The notes beneath the pieces were generated by a model that was given only the letters and a program-made list of their open reading frames with translations, was not told the origin of the DNA and did not search any database. Below, piece after piece: positions 3,162 through 45,842 of a DNA stretch of 64,000 nucleotides. The stretch's first letter is position 1. The number at the start of each line of letters is the position of its first letter. Both the position numbers and the translations under genes were made by a program. Origin of the DNA: Escherichia phage ime; the sequence record MN850576.1; one strand, 5' to 3'.

Positions 3162-3695
3162 ATGACTTGTGCTAGAAAACCTGATGAACAACGTAACGCC
3201 TACGATGAGTATGTGACACCGGAGTGGTGTGCAGAAGGGCTGTATGACCTTATTCCGTTCCCAGAAGACTGGACCTACTTAGAGCCTTGCAGGAATAGTG
3301 CCTCAGGTGTGTTCTACTCCCGTATGCCGTTAGGATCTGCATGGGGAGAAATCCAAGAAGGTGTTGACTATCTGAATACAGAATACAACCATGTTGACTG
3401 TATTATCACCAACCCGCCGTACAGCCTGGCTCGTGAGTTTGTGGACAAGGCGTTGAAAGATGCCGACGTAGTTATTATGCTTTTGCGTCTTAATTTTCTG
3501 GAAAGCAAGGCCAGATTTGAATGGTGGCTTGATAATGCACCTACCACTGTGATCACAATATCTAAGCGTCCGTCATTCCAATCTAATGGTAGAACGGATG
3601 GGCAGGCATATGCATATTTTGTATGGGACAAGAAAAACCGTCTAGACTTGCCGCCATTTATGTGGTTGGCACCACCAGAGGCAGACTTGAAATGA
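3162..3695 (+). CDS. small DNA N6-adenine methyltransferase (phage Dam-like)
   Basis: NPPY catalytic motif (DCIITNPPYS); 177 aa; GGAG RBS. Confidence 0.6.
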   Translation: MTCARKPDEQRNAYDEYVTPEWCAEGLYDLIPFPEDWTYLEPCRNSASGVFYSRMPLGSAWGEIQEGVDYLNTEYNHVDCIITNPPYSLAREFVDKALKDADVVIMLLRLNFLESKARFEWWLDNAPTTVITISKRPSFQSNGRTDGQAYAYFVWDKKNRLDLPPFMWLAPPEADLK

Positions 3696-3976
3696 AAATG
3701 AGTGCTAAGGACAAGTTGCACCAGTTAGCGCTAAAACGTCCTGTAACGCTTCCTGACGAGCTTAACTCTATTTATGATGCGATTGTTGGGGAGATACAAA
3801 ATAAAGCGTTAGCAGGCTTTCTGGGATGTGGATTTTCGATAAATCTCCCATCACACCTCTCAGACTACTTCCCACACATTGTTGGGGATTTGAGGGCAGG
3901 AGGTCTGCAGGTGGATGTTGTTGGCATCTCTCCGGAGAAAAATAACACAGTTGCCTACTTGACAGTGACCTGGTAG
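3692..3976 (+). CDS. hypothetical protein
   Basis: Internal ATG of track ORF 3623..3976; overlaps upstream stop. Confidence 0.4.
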   Translation: MKMSAKDKLHQLALKRPVTLPDELNSIYDAIVGEIQNKALAGFLGCGFSINLPSHLSDYFPHIVGDLRAGGLQVDVVGISPEKNNTVAYLTVTW

Positions 3977-4011
3977 TAGTGTATTTTGTTTTCAACAAGA
4001 GGGGGCCATTT

Positions 4012-4251
4012 ATGTACAAGTCATTCTCAATCTACTCAAGACAGGCGAAACACTACACAGAGATCCTGATCACTCAGAAAAAGTCTGTAGAAGGTGAGTG
4101 GGAGTATCACCATAAAATGTTGCGTCCAGATTGGGTTTTTGATAGACTTATTGCTATGATCCCTCTTGGAGAAGTATACCCTCTGACAGGTCATAGGGAT
4201 GCTTGGGATTTAATTGATTACATAGATTCATTTAAGGAGCCTAGATTATGA
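4012..4251 (+). CDS. hypothetical protein
   Basis: Internal ATG of track ORF 3979..4251 with AGAGGGGG RBS. Confidence 0.4.
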   Translation: MYKSFSIYSRQAKHYTEILITQKKSVEGEWEYHHKMLRPDWVFDRLIAMIPLGEVYPLTGHRDAWDLIDYIDSFKEPRL

Positions 4252-4646
4252 AGATTGAGATTACTAAAGAAGGTAAGAAAGTGTCCGGCAACTATGCAAC
4301 AGTAATTCGGGATTTAATGTTTGAAGCCACCAAGATCGGTACATCTAAAGTTGGTCAAACTGTTAGTGTGAAAAGTAATATCGCCACAGGAGAGAAGGTA
4401 TTCATTGTGGTCAAAGGGCAGGATCCCGTGGAAGGAACAGTGGGCCGAGGTGGCTACCTGTGCATTTCTGAAGAGCCGCGTATGTTAGTGGCTGACGCTA
4501 CTATGGGTGGGAAACGTGTGTGCGAGGCGGATGAGGTAATGATTATCCAACCTGTTGATCCAGATGACCCAGCAACTTGGGTGGTAGGAAATGAAATCTT
4601 CTCTTTAGAAGAGTTATCCTTCCCAGCACCGCGCTCTGTTCAGTAA
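4248..4646 (+). CDS. hypothetical protein
   Basis: ORF track; TAAGGAG RBS; ATGA start/stop overlap. Confidence 0.5.
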   Translation: MKIEITKEGKKVSGNYATVIRDLMFEATKIGTSKVGQTVSVKSNIATGEKVFIVVKGQDPVEGTVGRGGYLCISEEPRMLVADATMGGKRVCEADEVMIIQPVDPDDPATWVVGNEIFSLEELSFPAPRSVQ

Positions 4647-4683
4647 TAATTTATCTTACCAGGGACGGTAGGTAGGAGGTAGC

Positions 4684-6568: not shown

Positions 6569-6630
6569 TGGTTGAGATATGGCACAAAGGATGTGCCATA
6601 GTGAAATAAACTAAGAAAGAGGTAGAGAGA

Positions 6631-6978
6631 ATGCCAAAGATTAAAACGTTATTAATGTGGGTAGCTGTTTTAGCTTTTATAGGGTACTGGACTTGGGAAA
6701 CTGAATTAAAAGATATCGGATATACCAGTCTTGAGAGCAAGGCGTGCATTGGTATAACCGATGCATTCAGGCAAAATGCTATGGATCACGAATGTGTCGA
6801 TGCAGACATAGATGATAAACTGTCTAAGGACAAAGACTTCTACCACGGGTATGCTTTGCTTGACAGTGGGGACACTGTAGAGTTCTGGTCGTGGTTTCGT
6901 GAAGATGGAACAATAAAAACAGCAGTAAAAATCTCCAACAAAGAGTTAATGCTGTTGCAGCAGAAGGAGGTTCAATGA
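6631..6978 (+). CDS. hypothetical protein with N-terminal hydrophobic/signal segment
   Basis: AAGAAAGAGG RBS. Confidence 0.5.
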   Translation: MPKIKTLLMWVAVLAFIGYWTWETELKDIGYTSLESKACIGITDAFRQNAMDHECVDADIDDKLSKDKDFYHGYALLDSGDTVEFWSWFREDGTIKTAVKISNKELMLLQQKEVQ

Positions 6979-7262
6979 TCTGGATATCCTATGCGGATGG
7001 CACCATGCTGTATACTGCGGGTACCCGATACGAAGTTCAGGAGAACGATAAAAAATTTATCGTAAGAACATTTGACAAGGACGACAACCTTTTGCTAGAA
7101 TTGACTTACAAGGTTGGAGAGGTATCCAATATCCAATTGGATTGTGGTCATAAAGATAACCCACTCAAAAAACCTGGAATAGGCAAGGCTTCAGAAGAAC
7201 GTTTGTCTCGTATTGCAGAAAGCGTTTCTACACAAAAATCTAAGAAGGGGACTAGAAAATGA
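6975..7262 (+). CDS. hypothetical protein
   Basis: AGAAGGAGG RBS; ATGA overlap. Confidence 0.5.
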   Translation: MIWISYADGTMLYTAGTRYEVQENDKKFIVRTFDKDDNLLLELTYKVGEVSNIQLDCGHKDNPLKKPGIGKASEERLSRIAESVSTQKSKKGTRK

Positions 7263-7453
7263 AAAACTTACGTTTTAACACTTATTACTACAACACATTG
7301 AATGATTTGTATTATATTGTTCGAAGTAAAAGTCCTGAAACAGTCCTATTCTGCCGCGAACCTTTCAAAGGGGAGGAAGTAGAGTCTGAGATGAATGTTA
7401 GCCAGATCACCTCTTTGTTGCTCTCAGGTGCAATGGAAGAAGCAATATTCTAA
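7259..7453 (+). CDS. hypothetical protein
   Basis: ORF track; overlap coupling. Confidence 0.45.
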   Translation: MKNLRFNTYYYNTLNDLYYIVRSKSPETVLFCREPFKGEEVESEMNVSQITSLLLSGAMEEAIF

Positions 7454-7470
7454 ACCAGGCGGGGGGTTTT

Positions 7471-7656
7471 ATGAAGCACTATTGCCTGTCTGGTAGAATG
7501 GGTGCAGATTGTGATTGGGTTTTCTTAAAACTTGTCAGCATTCGAGAGTTCATCCCAGAGGAAGAGCAAGAAAGCGAGCTGATGTCATGGATCAACCATT
7601 ACGGTAACACTTTTCGGCATGTTAAGGTAGAAGAGTTGCCAAGCGAGGCTGATTGA
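7471..7656 (+). CDS. hypothetical protein
   Basis: ORF track; G-rich RBS. Confidence 0.45.
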   Translation: MKHYCLSGRMGADCDWVFLKLVSIREFIPEEEQESELMSWINHYGNTFRHVKVEELPSEAD

Positions 7657-7658
7657 CT

Positions 7659-7748
7659 ATGATTGCATCAATATTAACGTTTATGGGTGGCGTGGCATTC
7701 GGATTCATTGTTTGCCTGTTTATAGTGATTATGTCTATGCGAGGCTGA
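7659..7748 (+). CDS. small hydrophobic peptide (29 aa), below track cutoff
   Basis: ATG 2 nt after upstream stop; hand-translated MIASILTFMGGVAFGFIVCLFIVIMSMRG. Confidence 0.3.
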   Translation: MIASILTFMGGVAFGFIVCLFIVIMSMRG

Positions 7749-7751
7749 ATT

Positions 7752-8048
7752 ATGAAACTTTTTGAGTGGTTTAAAAAGTTTAAATATAAAGCTGTAGCCA
7801 TCGTGCCGTGGTCCATTCAGTGGGTTGATGAAGGTGGTCTACCGATACCTGGTGACAAAGATACTGGGTACTGGATTATGATGGAGAACGGGTTTGGAAA
7901 GCGAAAGTATACGTGCACAAACTCTACTCGATCTGCACTTAATAGAGTTCCTGGTTACAAACTTATGGTTGTGTGGAAAATGTCAGGCGTGCCTCCAGCC
8001 AATGCTCAATTTCTTACTGACAATCCGACCACGGTAGAGGGAGATTGA
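7752..8048 (+). CDS. hypothetical protein
   Basis: ORF track. Confidence 0.5.
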   Translation: MKLFEWFKKFKYKAVAIVPWSIQWVDEGGLPIPGDKDTGYWIMMENGFGKRKYTCTNSTRSALNRVPGYKLMVVWKMSGVPPANAQFLTDNPTTVEGD

Positions 8049-8050
8049 TA

Positions 8051-8332
8051 ATGAAAAAGATTAACAGTAGTGAAGTAGAGTTTAAACTTGTCGGAAAAGG
8101 CACTTACTGGGAAGTTCGTCAAAAGGTATATTTGTTCGGTATTATTCCCTACTGGTCTAAATTCTACTGGGGAGCTAACGAGTGGGGAAGATACGCCACC
8201 AAATCAATGGCACTTATTGGTATAGCAGAGTACATTGCAGCCCGAGATAGGGTTGGAACCACTTATTACTACACTGCTGACGATATTCGTAACAGTGTTT
8301 ACATCCCACAACCGCCTGAGGGAGACCGTTGA
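8051..8332 (+). CDS. hypothetical protein
   Basis: ATG 8051 (track ORF starts at TTG 8045). Confidence 0.5.
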   Translation: MKKINSSEVEFKLVGKGTYWEVRQKVYLFGIIPYWSKFYWGANEWGRYATKSMALIGIAEYIAARDRVGTTYYYTADDIRNSVYIPQPPEGDR

Positions 8333-8556
8333 TGAAAGTTAAAGTTTTAGATTCAAGCTTCTATATTGGTCAGGAGCCCTTAGTGGGGAAAGTGTTTACC
8401 GCTATCCCTAACGAAGATTATCCTGACCTTTTAAAAATAAAAGGTGCAGATCTTATTTCCGCTGGTGCATCTCAGGACTGCTTTGACAGCCAGTGGACCT
8501 ACAACTTTGCCCTTGGTGAGGATGTAGAGATAGTGGAGGACGAGAATGAAGGTTAA
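8329..8556 (+). CDS. small protein, paralog family A
   Basis: MMKVKVLD...KGADLISAGA motif. Confidence 0.5.
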   Translation: MMKVKVLDSSFYIGQEPLVGKVFTAIPNEDYPDLLKIKGADLISAGASQDCFDSQWTYNFALGEDVEIVEDENEG

Positions 8557-8800
8557 AATTCTTGATTCTAACGTCTACTTGGGACAATCCTTCCTGAAGG
8601 GAAAGGTCGTTCCTGCGGTATACTTTGAAGGGTTGCCGTGGGATGATCCTGTGCGGCAACATCGCAGTTATGTAGGCCACAACGTGGTGTTTATCTTGGG
8701 ATCAGACCTGATCGCTGCTGGTGCACCGGAATATTATTTCGGGGAAGAATCCTATTATGCCTTTGGGGCAGGGTCAGATGCAGAGATTGTAGAGCTGTGA
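8546..8800 (+). CDS. small protein, paralog family A
   Basis: MKVKILD...GSDLIAAGA...EIVEL. Confidence 0.5.
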   Translation: MKVKILDSNVYLGQSFLKGKVVPAVYFEGLPWDDPVRQHRSYVGHNVVFILGSDLIAAGAPEYYFGEESYYAFGAGSDAEIVEL

Positions 8801-8812
8801 TGGGTAACCGTT

Positions 8813-9211
8813 GTGAAAAATAAACTGTTCAAAGTTACAATGAAAATTCGCGGAGCTTGGAGCGTAAAGCAAGGGCGTATCCCAGAATTTGAGAAAGACT
8901 TCTACGTAGTCTCCACCTCGGAGGAGGCTGCATGCTGGCAGGCTGGCTATGCATATGCAAGAACCTGGTACGAAGGATACCAGACTGGTGGCTATGACGG
9001 AGAAATTATCAGCAAGGGTGTAGAAGAAATTAATGTGTTGACAAGTGAAAAAGTTTTTGTTATAGTGCATCCAGATTCCAGAGTGAAGCATTACTGGAAT
9101 GCCAGAACAAAAACTTGGACACCGTTTGCAGATTCTGCTACACCACTTTTAAACCAGAAAGCTCTTGACTCTGTCCCGAGCTATGGGGTTGTTGAAGAAA
9201 AGCTAAACTGA
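8813..9211 (+). CDS. hypothetical protein (paralog of 11018..11413)
   Basis: Shared FVxxHPxSxxxYW...WTP motif. Confidence 0.5.
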   Translation: MKNKLFKVTMKIRGAWSVKQGRIPEFEKDFYVVSTSEEAACWQAGYAYARTWYEGYQTGGYDGEIISKGVEEINVLTSEKVFVIVHPDSRVKHYWNARTKTWTPFADSATPLLNQKALDSVPSYGVVEEKLN

Positions 9212-9228
9212 AACGGTGAGGTACTAAC

Positions 9229-9519
9229 ATGATTGATTTAGTTCTAGACACTGATAACACCGGAGCGTTTAAAAAGGATGGTGTAACAAGCGTTGACCAA
9301 TCATTCCCTGCCAAGATTGACTCAAAATGGACCTACAAGTTTGATGGAGAGATCTTCGCAAATGATGAGAAGGTTGTAGATGCTGCAGCCATTTTGAACG
9401 CTCTAGGGTACGACCCTGTGAATTCTTTGATCAAGGATCCTGTTGAGTTTGCAGAGTATGTTCGAAAAATGGCAGATCTTGCTGTGGATATTTTAAAAAC
9501 TATCGACAACAATCTGTAA
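9229..9519 (+). CDS. hypothetical protein
   Basis: ORF track; GAGG RBS. Confidence 0.5.
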   Translation: MIDLVLDTDNTGAFKKDGVTSVDQSFPAKIDSKWTYKFDGEIFANDEKVVDAAAILNALGYDPVNSLIKDPVEFAEYVRKMADLAVDILKTIDNNL

Positions 9520-9525
9520 AAACTG

Positions 9526-9554
9526 TTGACACAACGCTTCAGATTTAGTATCAT
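9526..9554 (+). promoter_or_regulatory. sigma70-like promoter (TTGACA-17-TATCAT)
   Basis: TTGACA 9526-9531, TATCAT 9549-9554, upstream of HPF gene. Confidence 0.5.
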
Positions 9555-9601
9555 TGTTTTCAAAGAGGGTTTGGTTCCCTCTTCTTTAAAAGGAACACGT
9601 T

Positions 9602-9919
9602 ATGCAAATTGAAATCACTGGCAACGTAGAAATCACTGAAGGTATGGTGTCTTTCATTTCCCACAAAATGTCTAAGCTGGAGCGTTTGCATCCCTCTGCC
9701 AACTATGCACGTGTGAGTGTAAAAGTTGAAAATGATCACCAGGAAGTTATGGCGTTCATTTTTGACAATTCTGGAAAAGAAGTTATTGCCAAAGCTAAAG
9801 GCAGTGATGCTTACGAGGCAACTGACCGTATGGTAGATGTTGCAGCACGTCAACTGGCTAAATGCGGTGGAAAGAAAGGTAAGGGGAAAGGCAAAGTAAA
9901 GATTGACTTTGGAGAATGA
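9602..9919 (+). CDS. hpf: ribosome hibernation promoting factor / RaiA-family protein (short form)
   Basis: MQIEITGNVEITEGM...KLERL...ARQLAK closely parallels E. coli HPF MQLNITGNNVEITEAL...KLEQY...ARQLTK (recalled). Confidence 0.75.
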   Translation: MQIEITGNVEITEGMVSFISHKMSKLERLHPSANYARVSVKVENDHQEVMAFIFDNSGKEVIAKAKGSDAYEATDRMVDVAARQLAKCGGKKGKGKGKVKIDFGE

Positions 9920-9928
9920 GGTGCTACA

Positions 9929-10030
9929 ATGGGTGTGATCAAGAAATTAGTCCCAAATGTAGAGATTGCATGCTTTGAAATTATGTTTGCAATCGCAGTT
10001 GTAGTTAATGTGTTAGGTTACGGCTATTAA
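9929..10030 (+). CDS. small hydrophobic protein (33 aa), below track cutoff
   Basis: ATG 9929 with GGAGAATGAGGTG RBS; hand-translated. Confidence 0.3.
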   Translation: MGVIKKLVPNVEIACFEIMFAIAVVVNVLGYGY

Positions 10031-10056
10031 TATCAAATAATTGAGGAGACCTCTAA

Positions 10057-10326
10057 ATGAAAATTAAATTATTCAAAACTGAGCTGGCAGACAAAAACTG
10101 TGGACTGGTTGAAGGTATGATTGTCGAAGCACAACCAGTTGACTATATGAAGGTGGTTCGTGATGCCCTGGGTGAAGGTTTTGATCTGATGGAGCCAGCT
10201 CTGCGAGAAGATGTTATCGAGATGGCTAAAAAGCACACACCTGAAGGCATGGTGGTGTTTGTTGCACCGGGTAACGGAGAAGAGTTGATTGTAACTCCGG
10301 ATGTGTATGAGATTGTAGAGGAATAA
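10057..10326 (+). CDS. small acidic protein (family A-related, ...EIVEE)
   Basis: GAGGAGA RBS. Confidence 0.5.
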   Translation: MKIKLFKTELADKNCGLVEGMIVEAQPVDYMKVVRDALGEGFDLMEPALREDVIEMAKKHTPEGMVVFVAPGNGEELIVTPDVYEIVEE

Positions 10327-10417
10327 TCCTGCTTGGATTAGCATACTTCCTCGATAAGGAAGGTTTGTAATTATTTGTGGGAAAGGAATCCCAATCTCTT
10401 ACCAGAGGTGATACTAT

Positions 10418-10681
10418 ATGATTGTTTATTTTAAAACTTCAGGTGGATACCCTGATTCTCAAAGCTTGATCGGAAAAACGTGCACAGCATACTCACCTCT
10501 TGATGAGGAGGTAGGCGATATTCTACGAAATATGTATCGGATTGATCCTCAAGAAGCTTTTGATCAAAACCTTGTATTTGTCAAGGGCTCAGACATGAAG
10601 TCTTTGGGAGCATTCCCTGAAGCAGATGATGATGCCGTTTATTCGTTCATGACCCCTTTTGAAGCTATGGTTGTTGGGTGA
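10418..10681 (+). CDS. small protein, paralog family A
   Basis: LVFVKGSDMKSLGA motif. Confidence 0.5.
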   Translation: MIVYFKTSGGYPDSQSLIGKTCTAYSPLDEEVGDILRNMYRIDPQEAFDQNLVFVKGSDMKSLGAFPEADDDAVYSFMTPFEAMVVG

Positions 10682-10685
10682 TAAT

Positions 10686-11018
10686 ATGAAAGTACGCTTT
10701 ATTGGTGAAACAATTCCTGTGCATCTCCGGTCGCCTGAGGATTCTGCAGATCTTGCATCTCAAAAGGCGAGAGGTTATGATAAGAAAGTAACCTCAACTG
10801 ATGTAGTGCTTGAGGCTACTAGTCTACCTGACCCTGCTGCATTCTTTAATCATTATGGGTACTATTTCAGCAATCTGATGAATATCGGTGAGCTTGTGTT
10901 TATTAGTGGTGGAGAGATTGTTAGCAAGCTTGGCGGCGATCCGGATGTCTTTCATGAAACCTGTCCTTTTGCATTTGTGGTAGGTTCAGATGTGGAAGTT
11001 ATTGAGGAGGTGCGGTAA
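10686..11018 (+). CDS. small protein, paralog family A
   Basis: MKVRFIGE...VVGSDVEVIEE; ATG 10686. Confidence 0.5.
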   Translation: MKVRFIGETIPVHLRSPEDSADLASQKARGYDKKVTSTDVVLEATSLPDPAAFFNHYGYYFSNLMNIGELVFISGGEIVSKLGGDPDVFHETCPFAFVVGSDVEVIEEVR

Positions 11019-11413
11019 TGGTAAGCCTATACCGTGTTGAGTATAGCTCAGATACTGTATACAACGTAAGAAGCAAAGATCGCAGCGACAGAGTGCAAGA
11101 AATGTATGTTCTTGCCGACAGTCCGTTATCTGCAGCGTTCAAGGCAGGGGCTCTTGCATCTCGTTGGAAATTTGAAGGCGGATCTTTCTATGAAGAAACC
11201 CTTGAAGATTCTGTTGTTATTTCTTCTGTAGAGGTTTCAGATGACTACGAAGGGAAAAAGTTCGTAATGCGGCACCCACACAGCAACATTGCGTACTACT
11301 GGGATGTTCTGAACAACGAGTGGACCCCAGATCTTCAGAAGGCTACTGTGCTAACACCGTTTTTGGCAGATAAGTTCCCACCAGAAGGTAATTTATCCGC
11401 ACTGTTTCAGTAA
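11018..11413 (+). CDS. hypothetical protein (paralog of 8813..9211)
   Basis: Shared HPxSNIAYYWD...WTP motif. Confidence 0.5.
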   Translation: MVSLYRVEYSSDTVYNVRSKDRSDRVQEMYVLADSPLSAAFKAGALASRWKFEGGSFYEETLEDSVVISSVEVSDDYEGKKFVMRHPHSNIAYYWDVLNNEWTPDLQKATVLTPFLADKFPPEGNLSALFQ

Positions 11414-11492
11414 TTTTCTTGCACACAGGTGTTGACAACGCCAACCCTGTGTGAAATAATACCTTCATCTTAACAAGACAGGAGACCGATTG

Positions 11493-11750
11493 ATGAAGAT
11501 TAAATTGAAAAACCTTGAAACGGCAGAGATTCAGGACGGTGTTGATTTCCGTTCTAAAGATGGTGACATCTTAGAGGTAAATATTCCAACCTACGAGCTG
11601 ATTAAAGGTTTTGGCAACGTTCCGGAAGAGGATATTACAGAAATTCTTATGATGTTGATTCTTGACGGAACTGTGTTTGTAGGTGAAGGTGAGAACGCTA
11701 TTGCAATCCCAGGCCATTTTTATGAAGTAGTTGACGAAGAGGTGCTGTAA
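11493..11750 (+). CDS. small acidic protein (family A-related)
   Basis: ATG 11493 with AGGAGA RBS. Confidence 0.5.
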   Translation: MKIKLKNLETAEIQDGVDFRSKDGDILEVNIPTYELIKGFGNVPEEDITEILMMLILDGTVFVGEGENAIAIPGHFYEVVDEEVL

Positions 11751-12101
11751 ATGAAAGTAGAAATTACCGGTTTTGATGTGAATGTGGTTCCGGAAGATAT
11801 TTTAGCTAAACTTCCAGAAGGTTTTGGTAACGGCGTTGTGGTGGATGCTGTTCCTCCTACCAAAGACATTCTGCTGCAGTATGGTGTAGCAGAGGAAGAT
11901 GTCGATAAAGTTCTTACAATGATGGCAATCGATCGTGTTGTCGTTGTTAAAGGTCTCGATAATTTTGAGAGTGATCCCCTGATTATTCGTGGAGATGACT
12001 ACAAAATCATCGATAATGAAGGCCAAGAGTTCTATGAACCTTGTGCAGAAGATATTCTTAACTTATTACTGGAAGCAGGCACCGAAGAGGAGGACGAATA
12101 A
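11751..12101 (+). CDS. small highly acidic protein
   Basis: ORF track; abutting upstream stop. Confidence 0.5.
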   Translation: MKVEITGFDVNVVPEDILAKLPEGFGNGVVVDAVPPTKDILLQYGVAEEDVDKVLTMMAIDRVVVVKGLDNFESDPLIIRGDDYKIIDNEGQEFYEPCAEDILNLLLEAGTEEEDE

Positions 12102-12430
12102 TGAAGATTGACCCGTTACTGAAGGCTCGTGCAGAAAAAGCGTACACTATTAAGCTGACTAATCTGGTTCCTACTTGTCATCCGGATGTAGGTTGGCCCG
12201 AAGGTCTGGTAGAGGGAACTGTAACAGCTGCATACCTTCCTAACATCAAGTACCTTATGGAGATCTTAGAGATGGATGAGGAAACTGCAGAACAGTTCCA
12301 GTTAGATATGAAACAGAGTGGGACTCTGGTTATTCACGGGTGGTATAATACTAAAGATGCAGAAGACCCTCTGGTAACTTCTAATCTGGCATATGAAATC
12401 TTAGGGCCTTTGAACCTGGAGGAAGACTAA
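12101..12430 (+). CDS. small acidic protein
   Basis: ORF track; TAATG overlap. Confidence 0.5.
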   Translation: MKIDPLLKARAEKAYTIKLTNLVPTCHPDVGWPEGLVEGTVTAAYLPNIKYLMEILEMDEETAEQFQLDMKQSGTLVIHGWYNTKDAEDPLVTSNLAYEILGPLNLEED

Positions 12431-12717
12431 TGAAAGATCTGGTTAAGATTAAGATTAAAGATACCAATGGAGAACTCAGCCATTTTGGAATTAATGATGG
12501 TGACGAGCTGATCGCACACCTGCCTACTAAGGAGGTTGTAAGCAAAGCAGTTGCCGGAGAAGAAGCTGCAATGCAGGCTGCAGGTGTGGATGAAAACTAT
12601 GTAGCTATGTGCATGTGCCGAGATCAGGTTGTTCTGTATAAAGCGTATCGACCAAACGGAGCCACGGAGTGGCTTGTATTCCGACCCGAAGGATATGAAA
12701 TCTTAGAGGCACTATGA
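12430..12717 (+). CDS. hypothetical protein
   Basis: ORF track; TAATG overlap. Confidence 0.5.
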   Translation: MKDLVKIKIKDTNGELSHFGINDGDELIAHLPTKEVVSKAVAGEEAAMQAAGVDENYVAMCMCRDQVVLYKAYRPNGATEWLVFRPEGYEILEAL

Positions 12718-12806
12718 TAAATCTTGCCAAGGTTGCAACGGCACTGTTAATTATTTGCTGGTCTGTAACCTTAACACTGTGTCTTGTATTTCAGTGAGGT
12801 GCTTGT

Positions 12807-13070
12807 ATGAACATCCTGATGTGGGTTATAGCAGTGGCGTTTGTTGCATGTTTTTGCTGCTGGGTTGCGGTGAGGATTTCTGTAGCTACCCTTCGGAAGT
12901 TGGGGTTCTCAGAATGGGATATTAATATCCTTTCTTTTCGCAATGAAACAATCTCAGCCGCCCTGCTTTGTAAGAAATTCAAGTGGGAACCTTGTGAGGT
13001 CATGAGCTATCTAAGAACAGGCGATATCCCTGAAAGATTTAAAAAAGTTCTTGACGGCAAGGATAAATGA
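12807..13070 (+). CDS. small membrane protein
   Basis: ORF track; hydrophobic N-terminus. Confidence 0.45.
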   Translation: MNILMWVIAVAFVACFCCWVAVRISVATLRKLGFSEWDINILSFRNETISAALLCKKFKWEPCEVMSYLRTGDIPERFKKVLDGKDK

Positions 13071-13225
13071 CAGTATAGTGACTAACAAGAGGTGAGGAGT
13101 GACTGATTTTACTGAAGCTTTAATGATGGCCTTGTCTGTTTTAGCGCTATCGGTGTGTTTTGGGGCGTTATTCACATCTCTGGTTAAAGTTTTACATACA
13201 GTATTATTACCCAAGGAGCGCAGTA

Positions 13226-13477
13226 ATGACGAAGATTGACTTGAATGCTGGCGACCATGTTGTTGTCAAATGCATCGGAGATTATCTTGGATTCACAATC
13301 GGTAATACTTACGAGGCGGTAGTGGCGAAGGTTTATCATGATAAAGTCCTCAGTCTTGTATTTGACTGCGATGATGATGGAGATGACCGATACGTCTGTG
13401 AGGTGCTGGCACGAGACGACAGTGAAGACCAGAAATTCTTGGTTATTGAACTGAACGGTATTTTTGTAGAACGTTAA
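13226..13477 (+). CDS. hypothetical protein
   Basis: ATG 13226 with CAAGGAG RBS. Confidence 0.45.
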   Translation: MTKIDLNAGDHVVVKCIGDYLGFTIGNTYEAVVAKVYHDKVLSLVFDCDDDGDDRYVCEVLARDDSEDQKFLVIELNGIFVER

Positions 13478-13505
13478 TTTAAAACAACATAAGGGGACTC
13501 TTACT

Positions 13506-13811
13506 ATGGCTAAATCTAAAGTTGAACTGTTCACCTCTCTTCCTTCTGACACTGCAGAGCGTGATCGCCTTCGCAAGACAATCGAAGAACTGGTGGAACT
13601 CCAACTTCAGATTAAAGATCTGAAAGATGCCATTAAGGATATCATTCTCGTTGAGAAGCAGGATCACCTGTATTCTCCTAAATTCATCAAATCTCTGGTG
13701 GCTACCGAGTTCGATATTCGCTATGAGGCTGAAAAACGTCGAGCTAAAATCGAAGAAGAGGTTGAGCACATGTCCGAGGCAGACATTCTGTTCAAACGCT
13801 CTGTAGAATAA
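13506..13811 (+). CDS. hypothetical coiled-coil protein
   Basis: TAAGGGGA RBS. Confidence 0.5.
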   Translation: MAKSKVELFTSLPSDTAERDRLRKTIEELVELQLQIKDLKDAIKDIILVEKQDHLYSPKFIKSLVATEFDIRYEAEKRRAKIEEEVEHMSEADILFKRSVE

Positions 13812-13820
13812 TGACAAAAA

Positions 13821-13845
13821 GAGGGGCCCAAGCCCCTCTTTTTAC
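13821..13845 (+). terminator. rho-independent terminator
   Basis: GAGGGGC-CCAA-GCCCCTC followed by TTTTT. Confidence 0.6.
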
Positions 13846-13866
13846 TATCTATGAAGGAGATTTGAG

Positions 13867-14199
13867 ATGGGTATACCGATCACTGTAAAAGAATTGAATG
13901 AACGTGATGCAGGTGGTCTATGGCCTGCACGAAAAATACGCTGCATCCGTATGAAAGAGAACCTTGAGCATCTTGAGCAACAGAAACGGATTGAGGTTGG
14001 TGATATTTTCGAAGTATTTTATTCTGATCGCCGTAACTGGGAAACCATTCAACCTTCCGGTTTTGTTCTTGCTAAGCTTGACACTGGAGAAGTGATTGTT
14101 CCTGGGTTGGATATTGTCTTCGAAATTATCCAGGAGTGGGATCCGGACAAGATTAGATACGAAGAGCTATTCGGTGAAGGTATTATCAAACCTGTGTGA
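13867..14199 (+). CDS. hypothetical protein
   Basis: AAGGAGA RBS. Confidence 0.5.
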   Translation: MGIPITVKELNERDAGGLWPARKIRCIRMKENLEHLEQQKRIEVGDIFEVFYSDRRNWETIQPSGFVLAKLDTGEVIVPGLDIVFEIIQEWDPDKIRYEELFGEGIIKPV

Positions 14200-14207
14200 G
14201 GTGGATT

Positions 14208-14507
14208 ATGTCTACAAAGGCGGCTAAATACTCCTACATGCCATCAACCTCTGCAGAGGTAGACTTTAGTTTCGATGTGTTTCCACTGTTTGAGGTGGTT
14301 CTGGCATACCCAACAATACTATCTACTCCTGAATCACTTGTGCCTGTTAAGTTGCAGAACGCTATGCATTCCATGCACTACAACAACAAATGTAGGCACA
14401 GATGGTGTCAGGACGAGGAAAAAGATTTGGATAGTTTGAGAGATTTTGACAGTCACCTTTTGACACCTTTCAGCTACTCCAACCTTGATAAGCCCTCGTG
14501 GGTATAG
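14208..14507 (+). CDS. hypothetical protein
   Basis: ATG 14208 after GAGGTGG. Confidence 0.45.
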   Translation: MSTKAAKYSYMPSTSAEVDFSFDVFPLFEVVLAYPTILSTPESLVPVKLQNAMHSMHYNNKCRHRWCQDEEKDLDSLRDFDSHLLTPFSYSNLDKPSWV

Positions 14508-14531
14508 CAAAATATCAAATTTAAGACACCT

Positions 14532-14558
14532 AGGACGCTCTGTGGCGTCCTTTTCTTT
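14532..14558 (+). terminator. rho-independent terminator
   Basis: AGGACGC-TCTGTG-GCGTCCT followed by TTTCTTT. Confidence 0.6.
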
Positions 14559-14720
14559 ATCTGGTGCACGATTGCATACCTTGGGCAGTTAATCTCATTA
14601 CAGAGCGTTTAAGAGCTCCCTACAAACAACTCCATATTTCGAGCGTAGCGAGAACGCACGTCCGTTTTGACCCAAATCACCATACGCTCGGATTTTAACC
14701 AAACCCTCGCGGCGTTTCTG

Positions 14721-14749
14721 TTGACACATTACCGATCCAGTGATAGTAT
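14721..14749 (+). promoter_or_regulatory. sigma70-like promoter (TTGACA-17-TAGTAT)
   Basis: Consensus -35 and near-consensus -10. Confidence 0.5.
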
Positions 14750-14867
14750 CCACACATAGTTTGTAGAATATGGAGTACACAATGAGAACATTGTCCGAAG
14801 TTTTAGTGGTGATCCTGATGATCATTACGTCCATAGCGGCTGTTGCCGGAATACTCACGGGTGGAAC

Positions 14868-15080
14868 ATGATAAACACACATGCATCTGAAGAGACATCC
14901 AAAGGAGTGACTATATGTCCCTTGGCTGAGCCAGTGAAAGAGGAAAACTTAGATTCTGAAGATTCTCCATCTTCGCTCCAGGTAGATCCTGAGGCTGATG
15001 ACCTAACGTGGGAAGACATCGTAGATATCTGGTTCTCTATTATGCCTGAGCACGAAGAGTTCAGGGGTGGTAGACTATGA
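14868..15080 (+). CDS. small highly acidic protein
   Basis: ORF track; D/E-rich; start context weak. Confidence 0.35.
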   Translation: MINTHASEETSKGVTICPLAEPVKEENLDSEDSPSSLQVDPEADDLTWEDIVDIWFSIMPEHEEFRGGRL

Positions 15081-15201
15081 AGCACCGAGCCCACACAGGT
15101 TCCTCATGCTAAAGCATGGCCTGAAGAGGCAAACGTGCATAATTCCTGTGCATCGGAACGTATAAAACCCTGTTCACACTCTCATTTCCAGAGGAGATTT
15201 C

Positions 15202-15417
15202 ATGAAGATAGAAATATTTGGTGGAGCTGACAACACTCGTGGCCTGATTTACCTTGAATTCGATGAATCATACCTGCCAGAGGTGTTAAATATGGACTCT
15301 GTTGCTGATGCTTTGGGAGTAAGTCCTAAAGATCTCTACTCTGGTGCTGAGATTGATGGTTGGGAGGAGACCATGAACATTGATTTCAGTGAAGTAGGTG
15401 ATGAACCACTGGACTGA
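15202..15417 (+). CDS. small acidic protein (family A-related)
   Basis: GAGGAGA RBS. Confidence 0.5.
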   Translation: MKIEIFGGADNTRGLIYLEFDESYLPEVLNMDSVADALGVSPKDLYSGAEIDGWEETMNIDFSEVGDEPLD

Positions 15418-40423: not shown

Positions 40424-42502
40424 TTAAAAAGGTGTTTCATCATCCTCAAAACCAGGGACCGGATCAGAGGATGGATCATCGTATTGGAGGTCTTCCTGCG
40501 TGTCAATAGGCTTGACAGTGGGTGTTACAACCTTATCAGCCACAACCTTGCCCATAGGTGTTTCTACAACTGCATGCTCCTGATCCTCAAACATAGCCTG
40601 AGGTCTCCAAACAACCTCCCCACCTTCTCCGTCTGTAAACATCTGCATTTCTTTGTCCCAGTACCAATTACTGGCATCATGGAACTTACCTGTATGCGGA
40701 TCCATAACTAAAGTGTCAGCAATACCTAAAGTTTTTGCTGGACGGTTTTTAAGACCTACCAGACGGACACGTCCACGAGAACGATCCACCATTTCTTCGG
40801 CCTCGACACCTATGACTACCCAACTCAACTGTTCAAGCCCAGCCGATCCTCGCAAATTCTCTTTTCGCACAGGATACCAGAAAGGTAATGGGTTACCATC
40901 CTTGTCCTTAGGGGGCACAATCTCTGTACGTTTGAGGTGAGCGATCACCAAGATAAACACGTTAAACTGCTTACAAAACGCAGCCAGTTGGGTCATAGCC
41001 ATGTCCAGTTCTTTTCGCTCATCCTTAACATTAAGCCCTGAAATTACCATGGACAGGTGATCCAGCACAATATAACGACAATGGTACAGGCAAACCATTT
41101 GCTTAAGCTTGGTAATCAACTCGTCCACTGGAATAGACCCGAAATGTTTGAACACTTTGATTTTTCCAGCTTTTGCCCATGATTGGTGAATCTCTGCGTG
41201 TTCTTGATCAGTTAAAAACTGGCTAGGATCTTCAACAAACTCTTTAACATCAAACCCTAACTGGTTTGCATACAAGGAGTTAATTGCTTCCTCTGGGTCC
41301 TCCTCAAGATGGATCATACATAGACGATCATCCTCTTCATAGTCATCAGCCTTCGGGCATGTTGGGTCCATTAGGTATCTTGCAATACAATGTTCCAGTT
41401 TTTTAGCTACGGTTGTTTTACCGCCACCTGATGGGCCTGTAAGCATTACAAGTGTCCCCTTGTGCAAGCCTTTTAACATTTTTTGCAGTTTTGGGAACTC
41501 TGCACTGATATCTACCCCGTTGGAAGTCTTTTTCCGCAAAGACTCGATAGAGAAGTCTTCTAAGTCCGACACAGCATCAGGCACGTATTTAACAGGATGC
41601 CGGAACATGTTGACAATATCTTCCAGCTTTTTAGCCTTCAGCATGTCACGGATATCTTTTACCCCGTCAGGGTCATTTACTTCACCAGGGTATTCTACGT
41701 GGTAAACGTTATCAGCCATCAAAAATGCTGCGATATTGTGCGTGGCCTCAACACCTTTAATGACGTGTTTTTGCTTCTCTACCTCGTTGGCTGCATCGTT
41801 ATCCATTGCCAGCACAACTGTTCCATAGCTACGGATAAACTTCTCATTGTTTGCAAAAGTATCTACTGCGTTTGCACATCCACAGTTAATTCCAACAAAA
41901 GGTAGGCAGGGTTTTCCTGCCAGATCACCACCGTTGATAACTGCATCGATCCCGTCCTGGACCTCTTTAGCCCACTGTTTCACCTTTGCCGGGGCTTTAG
42001 CATTGGTGAGAATCCCTTTTACTTGTATCTGATATGCAGCCTGCCATGCTGCAATAACATCGCCTTCCCCCTCACAAACGTTAATCTGCTTACGGTTGTT
42101 AGAAGATGCACACAGCTTTTGCCCAAACATTTGGGAGTTAGCCTTTACGATCCCAACCGTCGTAAAGTGCCCACGTTGCTCTTTGGGGATCGTCCAGTCA
42201 CGCTTTTTGAAACCGGACAGATTCCCGTAGCGGTCGTAATATGGGAAATATGTTGCAGTAACTGTCACACCGTCTTCTTGGGACAATGCTGATCGCACAC
42301 CAAAATATTGTGCAGCCATCAGACCGATATTTTGTTGTGGGACAGGGACAATTTTAGTATTTTCTAAAACAGTCTCTACAGTTTCAACTTCTTTTTCATC
42401 ACGATAGTCTCGTTTCACACTTCCCCCACTTTTATACTTAGTTGCTTTCGGGTTTGGCTCACCGAAACGGTTGTATGCAGATGCCATAAATTTACTTCCC
42501 AT
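40424..42502 (-). CDS. bifunctional primase-helicase (T7 gp4-like: TOPRIM primase plus DnaB-family helicase)
   Basis: TOPRIM-like CEGEGD/AMDNDAANE; Walker A GPSGGGKT; acidic C-terminus ...FEDDETPF. Confidence 0.85.
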   Translation of the reverse strand: MGSKFMASAYNRFGEPNPKATKYKSGGSVKRDYRDEKEVETVETVLENTKIVPVPQQNIGLMAAQYFGVRSALSQEDGVTVTATYFPYYDRYGNLSGFKKRDWTIPKEQRGHFTTVGIVKANSQMFGQKLCASSNNRKQINVCEGEGDVIAAWQAAYQIQVKGILTNAKAPAKVKQWAKEVQDGIDAVINGGDLAGKPCLPFVGINCGCANAVDTFANNEKFIRSYGTVVLAMDNDAANEVEKQKHVIKGVEATHNIAAFLMADNVYHVEYPGEVNDPDGVKDIRDMLKAKKLEDIVNMFRHPVKYVPDAVSDLEDFSIESLRKKTSNGVDISAEFPKLQKMLKGLHKGTLVMLTGPSGGGKTTVAKKLEHCIARYLMDPTCPKADDYEEDDRLCMIHLEEDPEEAINSLYANQLGFDVKEFVEDPSQFLTDQEHAEIHQSWAKAGKIKVFKHFGSIPVDELITKLKQMVCLYHCRYIVLDHLSMVISGLNVKDERKELDMAMTQLAAFCKQFNVFILVIAHLKRTEIVPPKDKDGNPLPFWYPVRKENLRGSAGLEQLSWVVIGVEAEEMVDRSRGRVRLVGLKNRPAKTLGIADTLVMDPHTGKFHDASNWYWDKEMQMFTDGEGGEVVWRPQAMFEDQEHAVVETPMGKVVADKVVTPTVKPIDTQEDLQYDDPSSDPVPGFEDDETPF

Positions 42503-43286
42503 TAATTCTGCTCCTTACTACAGGCTCGTTTGCTAAGAATACGGCTTTTGCCCAGCCACGTGGTGTGAGGCTTCGGATCATCTTCGTTCTTGCACTCTTC
42601 CCACCCAGCTTGGCGTGTTGCATGGAATACCCGCTAACCGCGTCAACTATTTGCGGGACAGGTTTTGTGGCCGGGATTATAAATCCATTACCTATCCAGC
42701 CGCAAGTTATTTTTGGATAGGCATCACGTGGAGCTATAAATTCAGGAAACCAGGGGTTTACATCATCCTCCGGTAAATACCCGCCATAGTCAGAAGGATG
42801 AAAACGGTAATCAGGTTTGCGCCACAGTGTGGACATAACACCAACAGGATTCTCTACATGCCACGGGCAATCGTAAATCTCTCCCAGCTCTTCCGCAACC
42901 CGAGCATCCTTTACAGCATTAATTTGGATCAAAGGATCCTTAGCCAGCTTTTTCTTAAAATGTGCAGCACCTGATACCGCTAAATGCGTGCACGGAGGAA
43001 ATGCAAGAATAAAGTCTGGAGCTGGATACATGCAAAAAGTTTCCTGAGGGAACCATGGGTCAATCCAATAATCCACATAGTGAATGTTAGGATGATCGGT
43101 TATCACCTCTGCATAACTGCCGTGGTCAGCACCTTCTGCATTAAAGCACAGGCACAGGTACCCAGCTTTTGCCCAGTCAATAACTGCACCACCAGACCCG
43201 TCAAATAGACTCCACACAACACCTTTGTGGTAGTGTTCTTTGTAGATGAATTTCAATTTGCTGTCTCCTAATGCAAAAAGCCCCAC
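42492..43286 (-). CDS. DNA cytosine-5 methyltransferase-like protein (atypical)
   Basis: Motif I LFDGSGG, motif IV AFPPCT (PCQ-like, Q to T), motif VI ENPVG; overlaps primase-helicase start by 11 nt. Confidence 0.55.
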   Translation of the reverse strand: MGLFALGDSKLKFIYKEHYHKGVVWSLFDGSGGAVIDWAKAGYLCLCFNAEGADHGSYAEVITDHPNIHYVDYWIDPWFPQETFCMYPAPDFILAFPPCTHLAVSGAAHFKKKLAKDPLIQINAVKDARVAEELGEIYDCPWHVENPVGVMSTLWRKPDYRFHPSDYGGYLPEDDVNPWFPEFIAPRDAYPKITCGWIGNGFIIPATKPVPQIVDAVSGYSMQHAKLGGKSARTKMIRSLTPRGWAKAVFLANEPVVRSRINGK

Positions 43287-43307
43287 CCTTTCGGGCAGGG
43301 CCTAGTG

Positions 43308-43790
43308 TTAAACCCGGATACCTATTGTATACTCGGTGGATACCAATGTCAAATCTAAATTTAAAATTTCTTGCATCTCATAATATGCGTCCAGGGTTAG
43401 ATACATTTCCCCATCCTTTTCTACATACTTGTCCAAGTGCTTGAGGCATTTCGGATAACTATCAAGTGCAGCTTTCAGGCACTCAAACTCTGTGCTGTTG
43501 ATGAATCCTTCCATCTTGGCTACCCGTTCTGGGGTAATGATAGCACTGTAGTGAGATTTAGCTTCCTGAATGCAATGGGTCCAAGCATCAACCTTCTCTT
43601 CGAAAAGTCCAAAGAACTTCTTTTTGGTGAGCTTCAGATTCTTTAAGTGCTTAAGCACTCGGTTGCCGATTACAGCCACATCACGAAACTTAAGGATCAC
43701 CTTGTCGATATCCTCGCGGCCTATTTTCACAAAGCAGGCTTCGCACATTTCAGGGGCTGCGTAACCTACTTTCCACATAAAATCTGACAT
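43308..43790 (-). CDS. hypothetical protein
   Basis: ORF track. Confidence 0.5.
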   Translation of the reverse strand: MSDFMWKVGYAAPEMCEACFVKIGREDIDKVILKFRDVAVIGNRVLKHLKNLKLTKKKFFGLFEEKVDAWTHCIQEAKSHYSAIITPERVAKMEGFINSTEFECLKAALDSYPKCLKHLDKYVEKDGEMYLTLDAYYEMQEILNLDLTLVSTEYTIGIRV

Positions 43791-43802
43791 ACCGCCTTCT
43801 CC

Positions 43803-44198
43803 TTATTCCTTAAAAGCTATGATATCATAGGAACTTGCAGATGATTCTGGTGAAGAATGACTCCAGTCCAGGTCATCAGAATAGTCAGCGTACTGTGCAC
43901 CACTACGTAGTTTATATTTTACCCACTTACCTGGTGCAGGGTTTTCACCACCTTCCCATACTTCCCAGCCTTCTGGCAGGCCGTCCTGGGGATAGTCATC
44001 CACCTCACTAATAATCTTAGGGTTTGGCACCAAGATCCCTGCAGGCTCTTCCTTCCGGATAAGTGTCCACACAACGTAGGTGTCTGAGCAGGCGCATGAT
44101 AGCAAAGTATATCCACTATTCAGAACTTCTGCAAGCTCTTTTTCAGCATCTTCCAATTTGGTTAAGTGGTATTGGATAATCTTCACACCTGTAATCAT
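43803..44198 (-). CDS. hypothetical protein
   Basis: ORF track. Confidence 0.5.
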   Translation of the reverse strand: MITGVKIIQYHLTKLEDAEKELAEVLNSGYTLLSCACSDTYVVWTLIRKEEPAGILVPNPKIISEVDDYPQDGLPEGWEVWEGGENPAPGKWVKYKLRSGAQYADYSDDLDWSHSSPESSASSYDIIAFKE

Positions 44199-44503
44199 CA
44201 GAAACCTCCCACTTCTTCAGCAAATGCAGCTGCTGTCGTCGCTGCATCCAGATAGGACTCTAGTTCACGGGCTGCACGTTTGTAAATTGAGTGGCGCATA
44301 TCGTTTGGCAGTTGGTGGAAGTCCACCTCTTCACCGTTGTGGTAAACATGCACATCGGTGATTTGTCTAAATCCGTAACAGTCAACATCAGAATCCCGGC
44401 ACTCCGGATCTGGCAACTGAACAACTGCCTGAGCTTCCACAGTAAACATATCGTCAAGTTCGAAATCGATTTCAAAAGTGTATGGTTTATAACGTTTCAT
44501 CAT
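44198..44503 (-). CDS. hypothetical protein
   Basis: ORF track. Confidence 0.5.
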   Translation of the reverse strand: MMKRYKPYTFEIDFELDDMFTVEAQAVVQLPDPECRDSDVDCYGFRQITDVHVYHNGEEVDFHQLPNDMRHSIYKRAARELESYLDAATTAAAFAEEVGGF

Positions 44504-44516
44504 TTGATTGTACTCT

Positions 44517-45842
44517 TTATTGATCAGAATTATCTTTCGTAATTAAGGTCTGGGTAAGTTTGTAATAGCGGAAGCCACCGCCACCTTGCCAGCTTGCAGA
44601 CTTAGAAATACCACCTTGATCTTCACCATCAATCACTTTTTGCAAGCGAGGGATAATATGGGTATGACAATGATCACCCAGTTCGATCAAGATCCAACGT
44701 CTTTTCATCTTGTGGGCTACAGCAGCAGTAGTTCCCGAACCGCCGAATGAATCCAATACCAAATCACCTTCTCGCGTACACATTTCGAGAATCCGCTTCA
44801 AAAGCGCTTCTGGTTTTTTTCCATTTTTGAAACTAACGCCGCCTTCATTTGCTATTCCATTCCAACTAATGTCTGTCCAAACATCAGTTATTAGTTCCGC
44901 AGGTTGCATCTCACCGTCAATTTCCAAAAGCCTGTTGGAGTAAAAGACCATTTGCCTACCATTTGCGATATAAAATCCTTCAACATCCTCATTCGGATGT
45001 GCATAAACCTTATCCCTATCTTTCTTTGACTTCTCGATAGTTTCTTTTCTCTTTATTTTAGCGCCACCACCAATTGCAACAGATTGAAATACACGTTCTG
45101 CATTATCAATTGCGAATTGTGCTAATTCATCATCGAATGTGTCAGGCAGTTTTTTCTTAGCTTCTTTTGCATCTTTATAGCCATTGGCCTTTGCAAACGC
45201 ATCGGCAATACCGCACCACGTCCAATTTTTATAATGGTCATCCGGGTTTAATAGGTATTTGTTATATCCTGTATCATACCCTTTAGGTATATAGATTTTG
45301 TTAAGCGGTTTCTGGGTGCGATCTTTTGCATATACAAGCAAAAAGTTTGCTGTGGAGAAAACTGTGGCTCCTGTTGCCTTAAATCCCGAAGGGGAATTTG
45401 TGGTCATCGATATGGTATTTAACTGATTTGCACGACCAAAAATCTCGTCCATCAAAACTTTTAAATACGCCATTTCGCAATCATCTAAGTGAACGAATAT
45501 TACCCCATCATCACTTAGAAGATTACGAATTATTTCTAACCTATCCCTCATTAAGCCCAGCCAAATGGAATGCTCAAGGCTATCATCGTAGTGCTCAAAA
45601 GCCCTTCCAGTATTGAATGGTGGGTCTATGTAAACACATTTCACTTTGCCTGCATACTCTTGCTCTAGCGCCTTCAATGCTAATAAGTTATCTCCAAAAA
45701 TCAGTTTATTATCAAAAATATCGTTTTCGGTCACTTTCTGGCTGTGGTAAGACTTGCTAGAATCTTCTAACAAAATGTGCGGCTCTAACTTTTTGCGCTC
45801 GTTTTTACCTATCCAGGTTAGTTCTAATTTGGTTTTACTCAT
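44517..45842 (-). CDS. DNA methyltransferase, beta-class (N6-adenine or N4-cytosine)
   Basis: Motif IV VYIDPPF N-terminal, motif I FGGSGTT C-terminal. Confidence 0.7.
   Translation of the reverse strand: MSKTKLELTWIGKNERKKLEPHILLEDSSKSYHSQKVTENDIFDNKLIFGDNLLALKALEQEYAGKVKCVYIDPPFNTGRAFEHYDDSLEHSIWLGLMRDRLEIIRNLLSDDGVIFVHLDDCEMAYLKVLMDEIFGRANQLNTISMTTNSPSGFKATGATVFSTANFLLVYAKDRTQKPLNKIYIPKGYDTGYNKYLLNPDDHYKNWTWCGIADAFAKANGYKDAKEAKKKLPDTFDDELAQFAIDNAERVFQSVAIGGGAKIKRKETIEKSKKDRDKVYAHPNEDVEGFYIANGRQMVFYSNRLLEIDGEMQPAELITDVWTDISWNGIANEGGVSFKNGKKPEALLKRILEMCTREGDLVLDSFGGSGTTAAVAHKMKRRWILIELGDHCHTHIIPRLQKVIDGEDQGGISKSASWQGGGGFRYYKLTQTLITKDNSDQ

Follow-up and report, generated by a model that had tools for sequence, protein, structure and literature searches.

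The 64,000-nucleotide stretch of Escherichia phage ime analysed here (sequence record MN850576.1; hereafter the window) carries three genes for methyltransferase (MTase)-like proteins: a 177-amino-acid (aa) protein with an NPPY motif, a compact protein resembling the C5-cytosine MTases, and a 441-aa protein resembling the Mod subunits of Type III restriction–modification (RM) systems. We explain the whole, with fair confidence, as three orphan MTases with the activities proposed below. The observation is real and largely ordinary: orphan MTases are commonplace in phages, and the three genes are already annotated as MTases in more than 100 public rV5-like genomes, so that the finding as such was already known. 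The residual interest lies in the C5-like protein, which represents a very common phage family that lacks motif X and most of the target recognition domain (TRD) and that is missed by Pfam, NCBIfam and PADLOC.

Three methyltransferase-like genes in an rV5-type phage

Escherichia phage rV5_ev146 (Vequintavirus) matches the entire 5.4-kb stretch at 40424-45842 with 99.7% identity, and some 100 further Vequintavirus genomes match it with 96-98%. The window thus belongs to a virulent E. coli phage of the rV5 type, a known kind of Vequintavirus that has been sequenced many times. The three MTase-like open reading frames (ORFs) lie at 3162..3695 on the plus strand (177 aa) and at 42492..43286 (264 aa) and 44517..45842 (441 aa) on the minus strand. 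With the exception of one start codon, these ORFs and the motifs quoted for them in a preliminary description of this DNA were present as described, with NPPY at 3411 in the 177-aa ORF, FDGSGG at 43205-43188, PPCT at 42998-42987 and ENP at 42854-42846 in the C5-like ORF, and DPPF at 45626 and FGGSGT at 44747 in the 441-aa ORF. A motif scan of all long reading frames detected no further credible MTase-motif ORF in the window. The 177-aa protein matched phrog_799 (E=5e-67), the C5-like protein phrog_757 (E=5e-87) and the 441-aa protein the Pfam family N6_N4_Mtase (PF01555, E=8.5e-43); on this homology, the three can be regarded as genes rather than chance ORFs. None of the three has a nuclease partner, in agreement with their earlier description as orphans.

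The C5-like gene most likely starts at the TTG at 43256, and thus extends over 42492..43256 (minus strand) and encodes 254 aa. The GTG at 43286, to which the ORF had been extended, sits within an intrinsic-terminator-like hairpin (43278..43303, minus strand; 11 pairs, a GAAA loop and a T-run), and a strong Shine-Dalgarno sequence read from the DNA, AGGAG (43265..43269, minus strand), precedes the TTG by 8 nt. The same length is found in the 99%-identical cluster representative P0001 and in the 765-nt coding sequence of GenBank record MZ501054. The existence and the atypical character of the gene thus stand, with its length corrected from 264 to 254 aa.

Earlier annotation already treats all three as MTases. 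The curated BASEL record MZ501054 names both the 177-aa and the 441-aa proteins 'putative N6 adenine methyltransferase' and the 254-aa protein 'Dcm-like C5 cytosine methyltransferase', and further records carry similar names; the original rV5 genome paper makes no mention of methyltransferases. Proteins at least 90% identical to the 177-aa, C5-like and 441-aa proteins occur in ~118, ~116 and ~86 phage records, respectively. The first two are therefore core Vequintavirus genes, while the Mod-like gene is present in a subset only.

A compact C5-methyltransferase-like family

The family to which the 254-aa protein belongs, phrog_757, comprises 3,539 proteins in a 5.8-billion-sequence protein set, with 2,074 representatives at 50% identity, and is found in 1,503 phage records. 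Its hosts include Vequintavirus, the T1-like Drexlerviridae, Kagunavirus, Krischvirus (Phi1) and Klebsiella phages, among them Webervirus, as well as lambdoid prophages of E. coli and Salmonella. The C5-like domain also occurs in larger proteins: it is fused to a D12-class Dam MTase in a 563-aa homolog (P0270), carries an HNH_2 insertion in another (P0260), and, in uncultured phages, forms part of proteins longer than 1,100 aa that also contain a helicase (BFVD A0A6J5SE15 and A0A6J5NPY6).

Homology to canonical C5-MTases is concentrated in motifs I-IV. PF00145, the Pfam family of these enzymes, produced weak matches in 25 of 45 homologs of the C5-like protein, and the three that exceeded the gathering score (>22 bits) covered only positions 4-94 of the 324-position profile, that is, motifs I-IV. 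A family profile compared with the Protein Data Bank (PDB) gave no better than E ~0.4, to DNMT3B and M.HaeIII over motifs I-IV. Profile-profile comparison (hhalign) with M.HhaI, whose reference sequence we confirmed to be 100% identical to PDB 10mh_A, placed residues 26-109 on M.HhaI 16-91 (E=3.8e-5), with Cys99 opposite the catalytic Cys81, and paired the C-terminal IRSLTPRGWAK weakly with the motif IX sequence IRKLHPRECAR. The M.HhaI homolog set was at least 71% identical and too alike for a deep profile. Against a profile that combined M.HhaI relatives with Dcm and CmoX, the central part of the global alignment could not be trusted, and the local mode was significant for motifs I-IV only. 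The C5-MTase catalytic-domain fold is present as a complete seven-strand catalytic domain, and Cys99, Glu145-Asn146 and the FxGSG loop are invariant over ~50% sequence divergence.

To define the family anatomy, we compared 245 full-length compact members with M.HhaI and with CmoX, a phage DNA cytosine C5-carboxymethyltransferase (PDB 8yf3; PMC12783734). Motif I (F-x-G-x-G), the cofactor-binding loop, appears as FDGSGG in the window protein and in its generic form in 218 of the 245. Motif IV is represented by PPC, with the invariant Cys99, in 205 members (PC in M.HhaI, PPC in CmoX), 190 of which have Phe before it (FPPC). The residue that follows is Thr in 192 of these 205 and never Gln, as it is in M.HhaI; Gln is not universal at this position, where CmoX has Ser and DNMT3B has Asn. 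The putative motif VI reads ENP in 233 of 245, compared with ENV, whose Glu protonates N3 of cytosine, in both reference enzymes. There is no QxRxR of motif VIII; YGG, R187-D188 and K192 are conserved before strand beta7 and could be its equivalents, although the alignment here is not significant.

The largest departures are in the recognition region and at the C-terminus. A variable TRD is absent: a median of 91 aa separates ENP from the motif IX-like segment (156 in M.HhaI, 165 in CmoX), and the residual TRD of ~40 aa, ~65 aa shorter than the canonical one, is conserved rather than variable across phage lineages. From the motif IX-like L[TS]PR to the C-terminus the median is 16 aa, compared with 53 and 52 aa in M.HhaI and CmoX, and this end is occupied by a C-terminal helix at residues 243-263 with an invariant Arg243 at its start. 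In M.HhaI, motif X helps to form the pocket for S-adenosylmethionine (SAM, or AdoMet). The median length of the family is 233 aa, against 327 aa for M.HhaI and 372 aa for CmoX. Relative to PF00145 enzymes such as M.HhaI, M.HaeIII and E. coli Dcm, the compact family therefore has PCT for PCQ and ENP for ENV, and is without most of the TRD and without the 'GN' of motif X. The PCT motif and the shortness singled out in the preliminary description are real, as is the want of Pfam, NCBIfam and PADLOC matches for the window protein, but PCT, ENP and short length are family traits and neither peculiar to the window gene nor marks of a degenerate copy, and the true departures are the reduced TRD and the missing motif X.

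A Dcm-type TRD or full-length likeness to Dcm was not found. The family profile aligned with E. coli Dcm over 27 columns only, around motif IV and without significance (hhalign, E=0.21), so a specificity for CCWGG cannot be read from the name 'Dcm-like' used in GenBank.

In the window, the C5-like gene ends within the start of a gene for a DnaB-type primase-helicase (40424..42502, minus strand; phrog_239, E=7e-160; DnaB_C and AAA_25 domains). The overlap reported earlier is real: it spans 11 nt (42492..42502, minus strand; ATGGGAAGTAA), with the helicase ATG at 42502, and is annotated identically in MZ501054. The ribosome-binding site (RBS) of the helicase gene, AAGGAG, precedes this ATG and lies within the 3'-terminal part of the C5-like gene; the two genes are likely to be translationally coupled. 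Kagunavirus SZH-1 has a similar overlap, and helicase adjacency or overlap recurs in rV5-like, Kagunavirus and T1-like phages, besides the helicase fusions mentioned above. Given that it is missing in Krischvirus Phi1 and in the lambdoid prophages, we read helicase adjacency as co-location in a replication module and not as a clue to mechanistic partnership. In the lambdoid elements (L011-L015), the C5-like gene lies in the nin region, two genes from a PF05869 Dam gene, in the conserved order PF05869 Dam, DUF6378, an unknown protein of ~165 aa, the C5-like gene, zero or one short ORF, NinG and RusA. No nuclease partner of the C5-like gene was seen in any genomic context examined.

Two amino-methyltransferase-like proteins

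The 441-aa protein (44517..45842, minus strand) is, with high confidence, an orphan N6-adenine MTase of the Type III Mod kind. The PADLOC model MTase_III (PDLC03636) matched residues 1-438 with E=3.5e-202, and the best PDB sequence matches were the Type III Mod 6k0w and EcoP15I Mod (4zcf). With these subunits the protein shares the PF01555 domain and the beta-class order DPPF-TRD-FxGxG, its DPPF being separated from FGGSGTT by ~290 aa that hold an internal TRD; DPPF fits an N6-adenine enzyme. It is nearly full-length relative to the PADLOC Type III MTase model, yet shorter than Type III Mod, covering positions 2-443 of a 575-position profile. Unlike a Type III RM locus, the gene is found in a virulent phage and has no adjacent Res: beside it lie genes for a PIF1-like helicase and for three small proteins without assigned function, none of which is a Res subunit or has a nuclease domain, and it is on this account an orphan. 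The internal TRD is expected to direct the enzyme to a short asymmetric site, where it would methylate adenine at N6.

The 177-aa protein, encoded at 3162..3695 (plus strand) directly downstream of a ClpP-like protease gene, is, with moderate confidence, a minimal NPPY amino-MTase of the gamma type, made up of the Rossmann catalytic core alone, with the motif order X-I-IV and no TRD. Both a (D/N)PP(Y/F) motif and a class I MTase fold with the gamma order are present, and the best fold match is the gamma-type enzyme M.TaqI, with which the protein shares NPPY, motif order and catalytic fold but not the C-terminal DNA-recognition domain. In an alignment of 49 homologs, T-N-P-P-[YF] is invariant and both Y-x-T-P (motif X) and LEPC-x-G-x-G (motif I) are conserved; the conserved core of these proteins continues to the C-terminus and leaves no room for a separate recognition domain. 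The protein had been introduced as a Dam-like MTase. The NPPY amino-MTase in that label is borne out, whereas 'Dam-like' goes back to Pfam matches below threshold and the fold is gamma-type, with M.TaqI on top: PF05869 (phage Dam) scored 19.2 bits against a cut-off of 28.1, TIGR01712 scored 16.1 against 97, and EcoRI_methylase scored 20.1 bits, again below the Pfam cut-off. There is some kinship with phage Dam in that the protein is close in size to the PF05869 model (169 positions) and a 48%-identical relative, P0353, has a PF05869 match. The enzyme most likely makes N6-methyladenine (m6A) in phage DNA.

Proposed activity of the C5-like protein and alternative explanations

We infer, with moderate confidence, that the 254-aa protein is most probably a compact C5-MTase-like enzyme that acts on replicating phage DNA and makes 5-methylcytosine (5mC) at a short site conserved within the family. 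By the standard mechanism, Cys99 would attack C6 of a flipped-out cytosine, and the methyl group of SAM would pass to C5. That the enzyme works is suggested by Cys99, Glu145-Asn146 and the FxGSG loop, which stay unchanged over ~50% divergence; that it serves DNA methylation is suggested by the fusion of the domain to a D12-class Dam in P0270 and by the nearby PF05869 Dam in the lambdoid nin region. Since what is left of the TRD is short and has been kept in many phage lineages, the specificity of the enzyme is probably short and common to the family, and since its gene is probably translationally coupled to that of the replicative primase-helicase, it would act on newly replicated DNA. For the three genes together, our analysis establishes that they exist, their homology and fold, the conservation of their motifs and their orphan setting, whereas catalysis, DNA as the target, the sites recognised and any protection are inferred.

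Several results weigh against the set of three active MTases proposed here. The C5-like window protein has no significant match in Pfam, NCBIfam or PADLOC, and none to PF00145 even at E<=0.1. Its own sequence search against the PDB stayed at chance level, the best match being to an unrelated sperm-tail protein (E=0.053) and that to M.HaeIII, over motif I, having E=1. Beyond motif IV its likeness to canonical enzymes is statistically weak in local hhalign, and GN[AS]V of motif X (GN in M.HhaI, GR in CmoX) is seen in only 3 of the 245 family members. For the 177-aa protein, rRNA m6A MTases score nearly as high in the fold comparison as DNA MTases do, and motif I of the rV5 clade is A-S-G with a two-residue insertion, not G-x-G. 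Site counts in the window give no hint of targets, with observed/expected (O/E) ratios of 0.99 for GATC and 0.90 for CCWGG. The sensitivity of Vequintavirinae to six RM systems, described below, makes a general protective role not evident. Finally, we found in the literature neither a biochemical characterisation of any member of the compact family nor a methylome of an rV5-like phage.

Alternatively, the 254-aa protein may have lost catalysis and may even have taken on another task, in DNA binding or as an accessory to replication. The absence of a canonical motif X, the ~65 aa missing from the TRD region and the failure of MTase hidden Markov model (HMM) libraries to recognise the protein would all fit, as would its tight coupling to a helicase gene in several lineages, the helicase fusion proteins that carry the domain, and the fact that phages with the gene show no restriction-resistance phenotype. 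We nevertheless consider this unlikely, for the residues that serve catalysis only (the Cys of PPC, the Glu-Asn of ENP and FxGSG) are invariant, as those of a pseudo-enzyme would not be expected to be. A methylation module is in keeping with both the fusion to a Dam domain of the active type and the position beside prophage Dam genes, and helicase adjacency is not universal. A C5-MTase fold could also move a group other than methyl, and the preliminary description had allowed for a non-methylating enzyme. We examined one concrete form of that option, in which the protein, like CmoX, would transfer carboxymethyl from carboxy-SAM (Cx-SAM) and so install a handle for hypermodification in place of 5mC. 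The invariant Arg243 that opens the C-terminal helix and the synthesis of Cx-SAM by E. coli itself leave a small possibility of this kind. CmoX, however, is a 372-aa enzyme with a full TRD, SPPC, and a motif X (VGRMVPP) that has Arg350 where M.HhaI has Asn (N304), and it is co-encoded with CmoA and often CmoY (PMC12783734). The rV5 protein has FPPC instead, and without motif X the position equivalent to N304 is undefined; neither CmoA nor CmoY is encoded in the window or in related phages, and no CmoA homolog occurs in any record under an Escherichia phage name. Lacking support from motif and gene content alike, a CmoX-like pathway was rejected, and we regard the transfer of a non-methyl group as very improbable.

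The substrate rather than the reaction may be otherwise. Dnmt2, a C5-MTase-fold enzyme that methylates tRNA, and the METTL5/Erm-type rRNA m6A MTases are precedents for small enzymes of either kind acting on RNA, and the 177-aa or the 254-aa enzyme, or both, might act on RNA or on single-stranded replication intermediates instead of a defined site in duplex DNA. This seems to us quite improbable. DNA MTases are the top matches of both proteins, their contexts are those of DNA replication and of nin-region modules beside DNA Dam MTases, and P0353, the relative of the 177-aa protein, has its match to phage Dam. In addition, the ClaI digestion pattern of Certrevirus CB7 was reported to be consistent with Dam-type methylation, with host Dam not excluded (PMC7344957). 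A further reading, and again an unlikely one, is that phrog_757 forms a mechanistically distinct minimal branch of C5-pyrimidine transferases, with a cofactor pocket or substrate choice unlike that of textbook C5-MTases. It draws on the missing motif X, the vestigial, family-conserved TRD, and the invariant PCT, ENP and RSLTPR signatures; such a branch could methylate very short motifs or almost independently of sequence, could act on single-stranded DNA behind the co-translated helicase, or could bind a SAM analogue through the invariant Arg243. A compact enzyme that makes 5mC in phage DNA remains our preferred explanation.

The preliminary description went further and saw in the three genes a layered shield against restriction, built by self-methylation. 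In favour of it, the phage is virulent and carries all three MTases as orphans, the Mod-like gene varies in its presence among relatives (~86 as against ~116-118 records), as expected of an accessory counter-defence gene, and GC-rich 6-bp palindromes are missing from the window, pointing to restriction pressure: GGCGCC, CCGCGG, CTCGAG, CCCGGG, GTCGAC and GCTAGC have 0 copies each in 64 kb where 2.7-6.2 of each were expected, although these sites were chosen post hoc and each alone reaches only ~2 sigma. Over the whole window CTAG has an O/E of 0.45 and CpG an O/E of 0.73. The absence of the palindromes suggests some restriction-site avoidance. A broad shield nevertheless conflicts with the phenotypes of the BASEL phages, among which the Vequintavirinae, including carriers of these genes such as CarlMeissner, proved 'exceptionally susceptible' to each of the six RM systems used, drawn from types I, II and III, and seemed to be without 'any effective protection' under laboratory conditions (PMC8594841). 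In the same work, resistance to restriction among the Drexlerviridae, which have the same C5-like family, showed no relation to their MTase genes (PMC8594841). We therefore hold a layered shield to be possible yet doubtful. Protection might be directed at RM systems outside the six of BASEL, which the variable Mod-like gene would fit.

The C5-like family is among the most widespread phage 'cytosine methylase' annotations, and its activity and specificity, once determined, would tell whether common coliphages carry 5mC, a matter of consequence for phage therapy and phage engineering. The presence of 5mC in coliphages also bears on McrBC-type restriction and on nanopore and bisulfite analyses. 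A study of the family would show how small an architecture can be and still carry out C5 methyl transfer, and would mend a blind spot in PF00145-based surveys of 5mC (m5C) MTases (for example, PMC11954522), which would miss these proteins.

Neighbouring features and minor observations

Upstream of the C5-like gene there is a sigma-70 promoter-like site, TTGACA-17-TACAAT (43324..43352, minus strand), which matches the consensus at 11 of 12 positions. It was identified solely by this match, and the region contains no more promoter-like sites than shuffled sequence would lead one to expect. From 43352 to 43256, the minus strand thus presents the promoter-like site, the strong terminator-like hairpin, the RBS and the TTG start, in this order. 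A promoter directly before a terminator is an odd layout, possibly explained by attenuation or by a chance promoter match.

Between the Mod-like and C5-like genes, a 101-aa ORF (44198-44503, minus strand) belongs to phrog_4240, of unknown function, and has weak matches to the 'DNA methyltransferase' families phrog_1573 (E=2.4e-6) and phrog_2060. Perhaps it represents a small accessory domain that in other cases is joined to MTases in one protein. On the other side of the Mod-like gene, the block at 46242-50810 (minus strand) encodes the PIF1-like helicase (456 aa), a 401-aa protein without a Pfam match, and a 660-aa protein with a HATPase_c_3 (GHKL ATPase) domain.

There is no tRNA gene anywhere in the window, and the ~17 kb at 6600-24000 contain no ORF of at least 150 aa, presumably being a block of many small early genes. 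Among the database records, dozens of unannotated 'Campylobacter phage' entries (GenBank MG0656xx; host C. jejuni) are 97-99% identical to rV5-like genomes of E. coli phages, and other MG0656xx records share their C5-like gene with T1-like or Kagunavirus coliphages; their host labels look doubtful.

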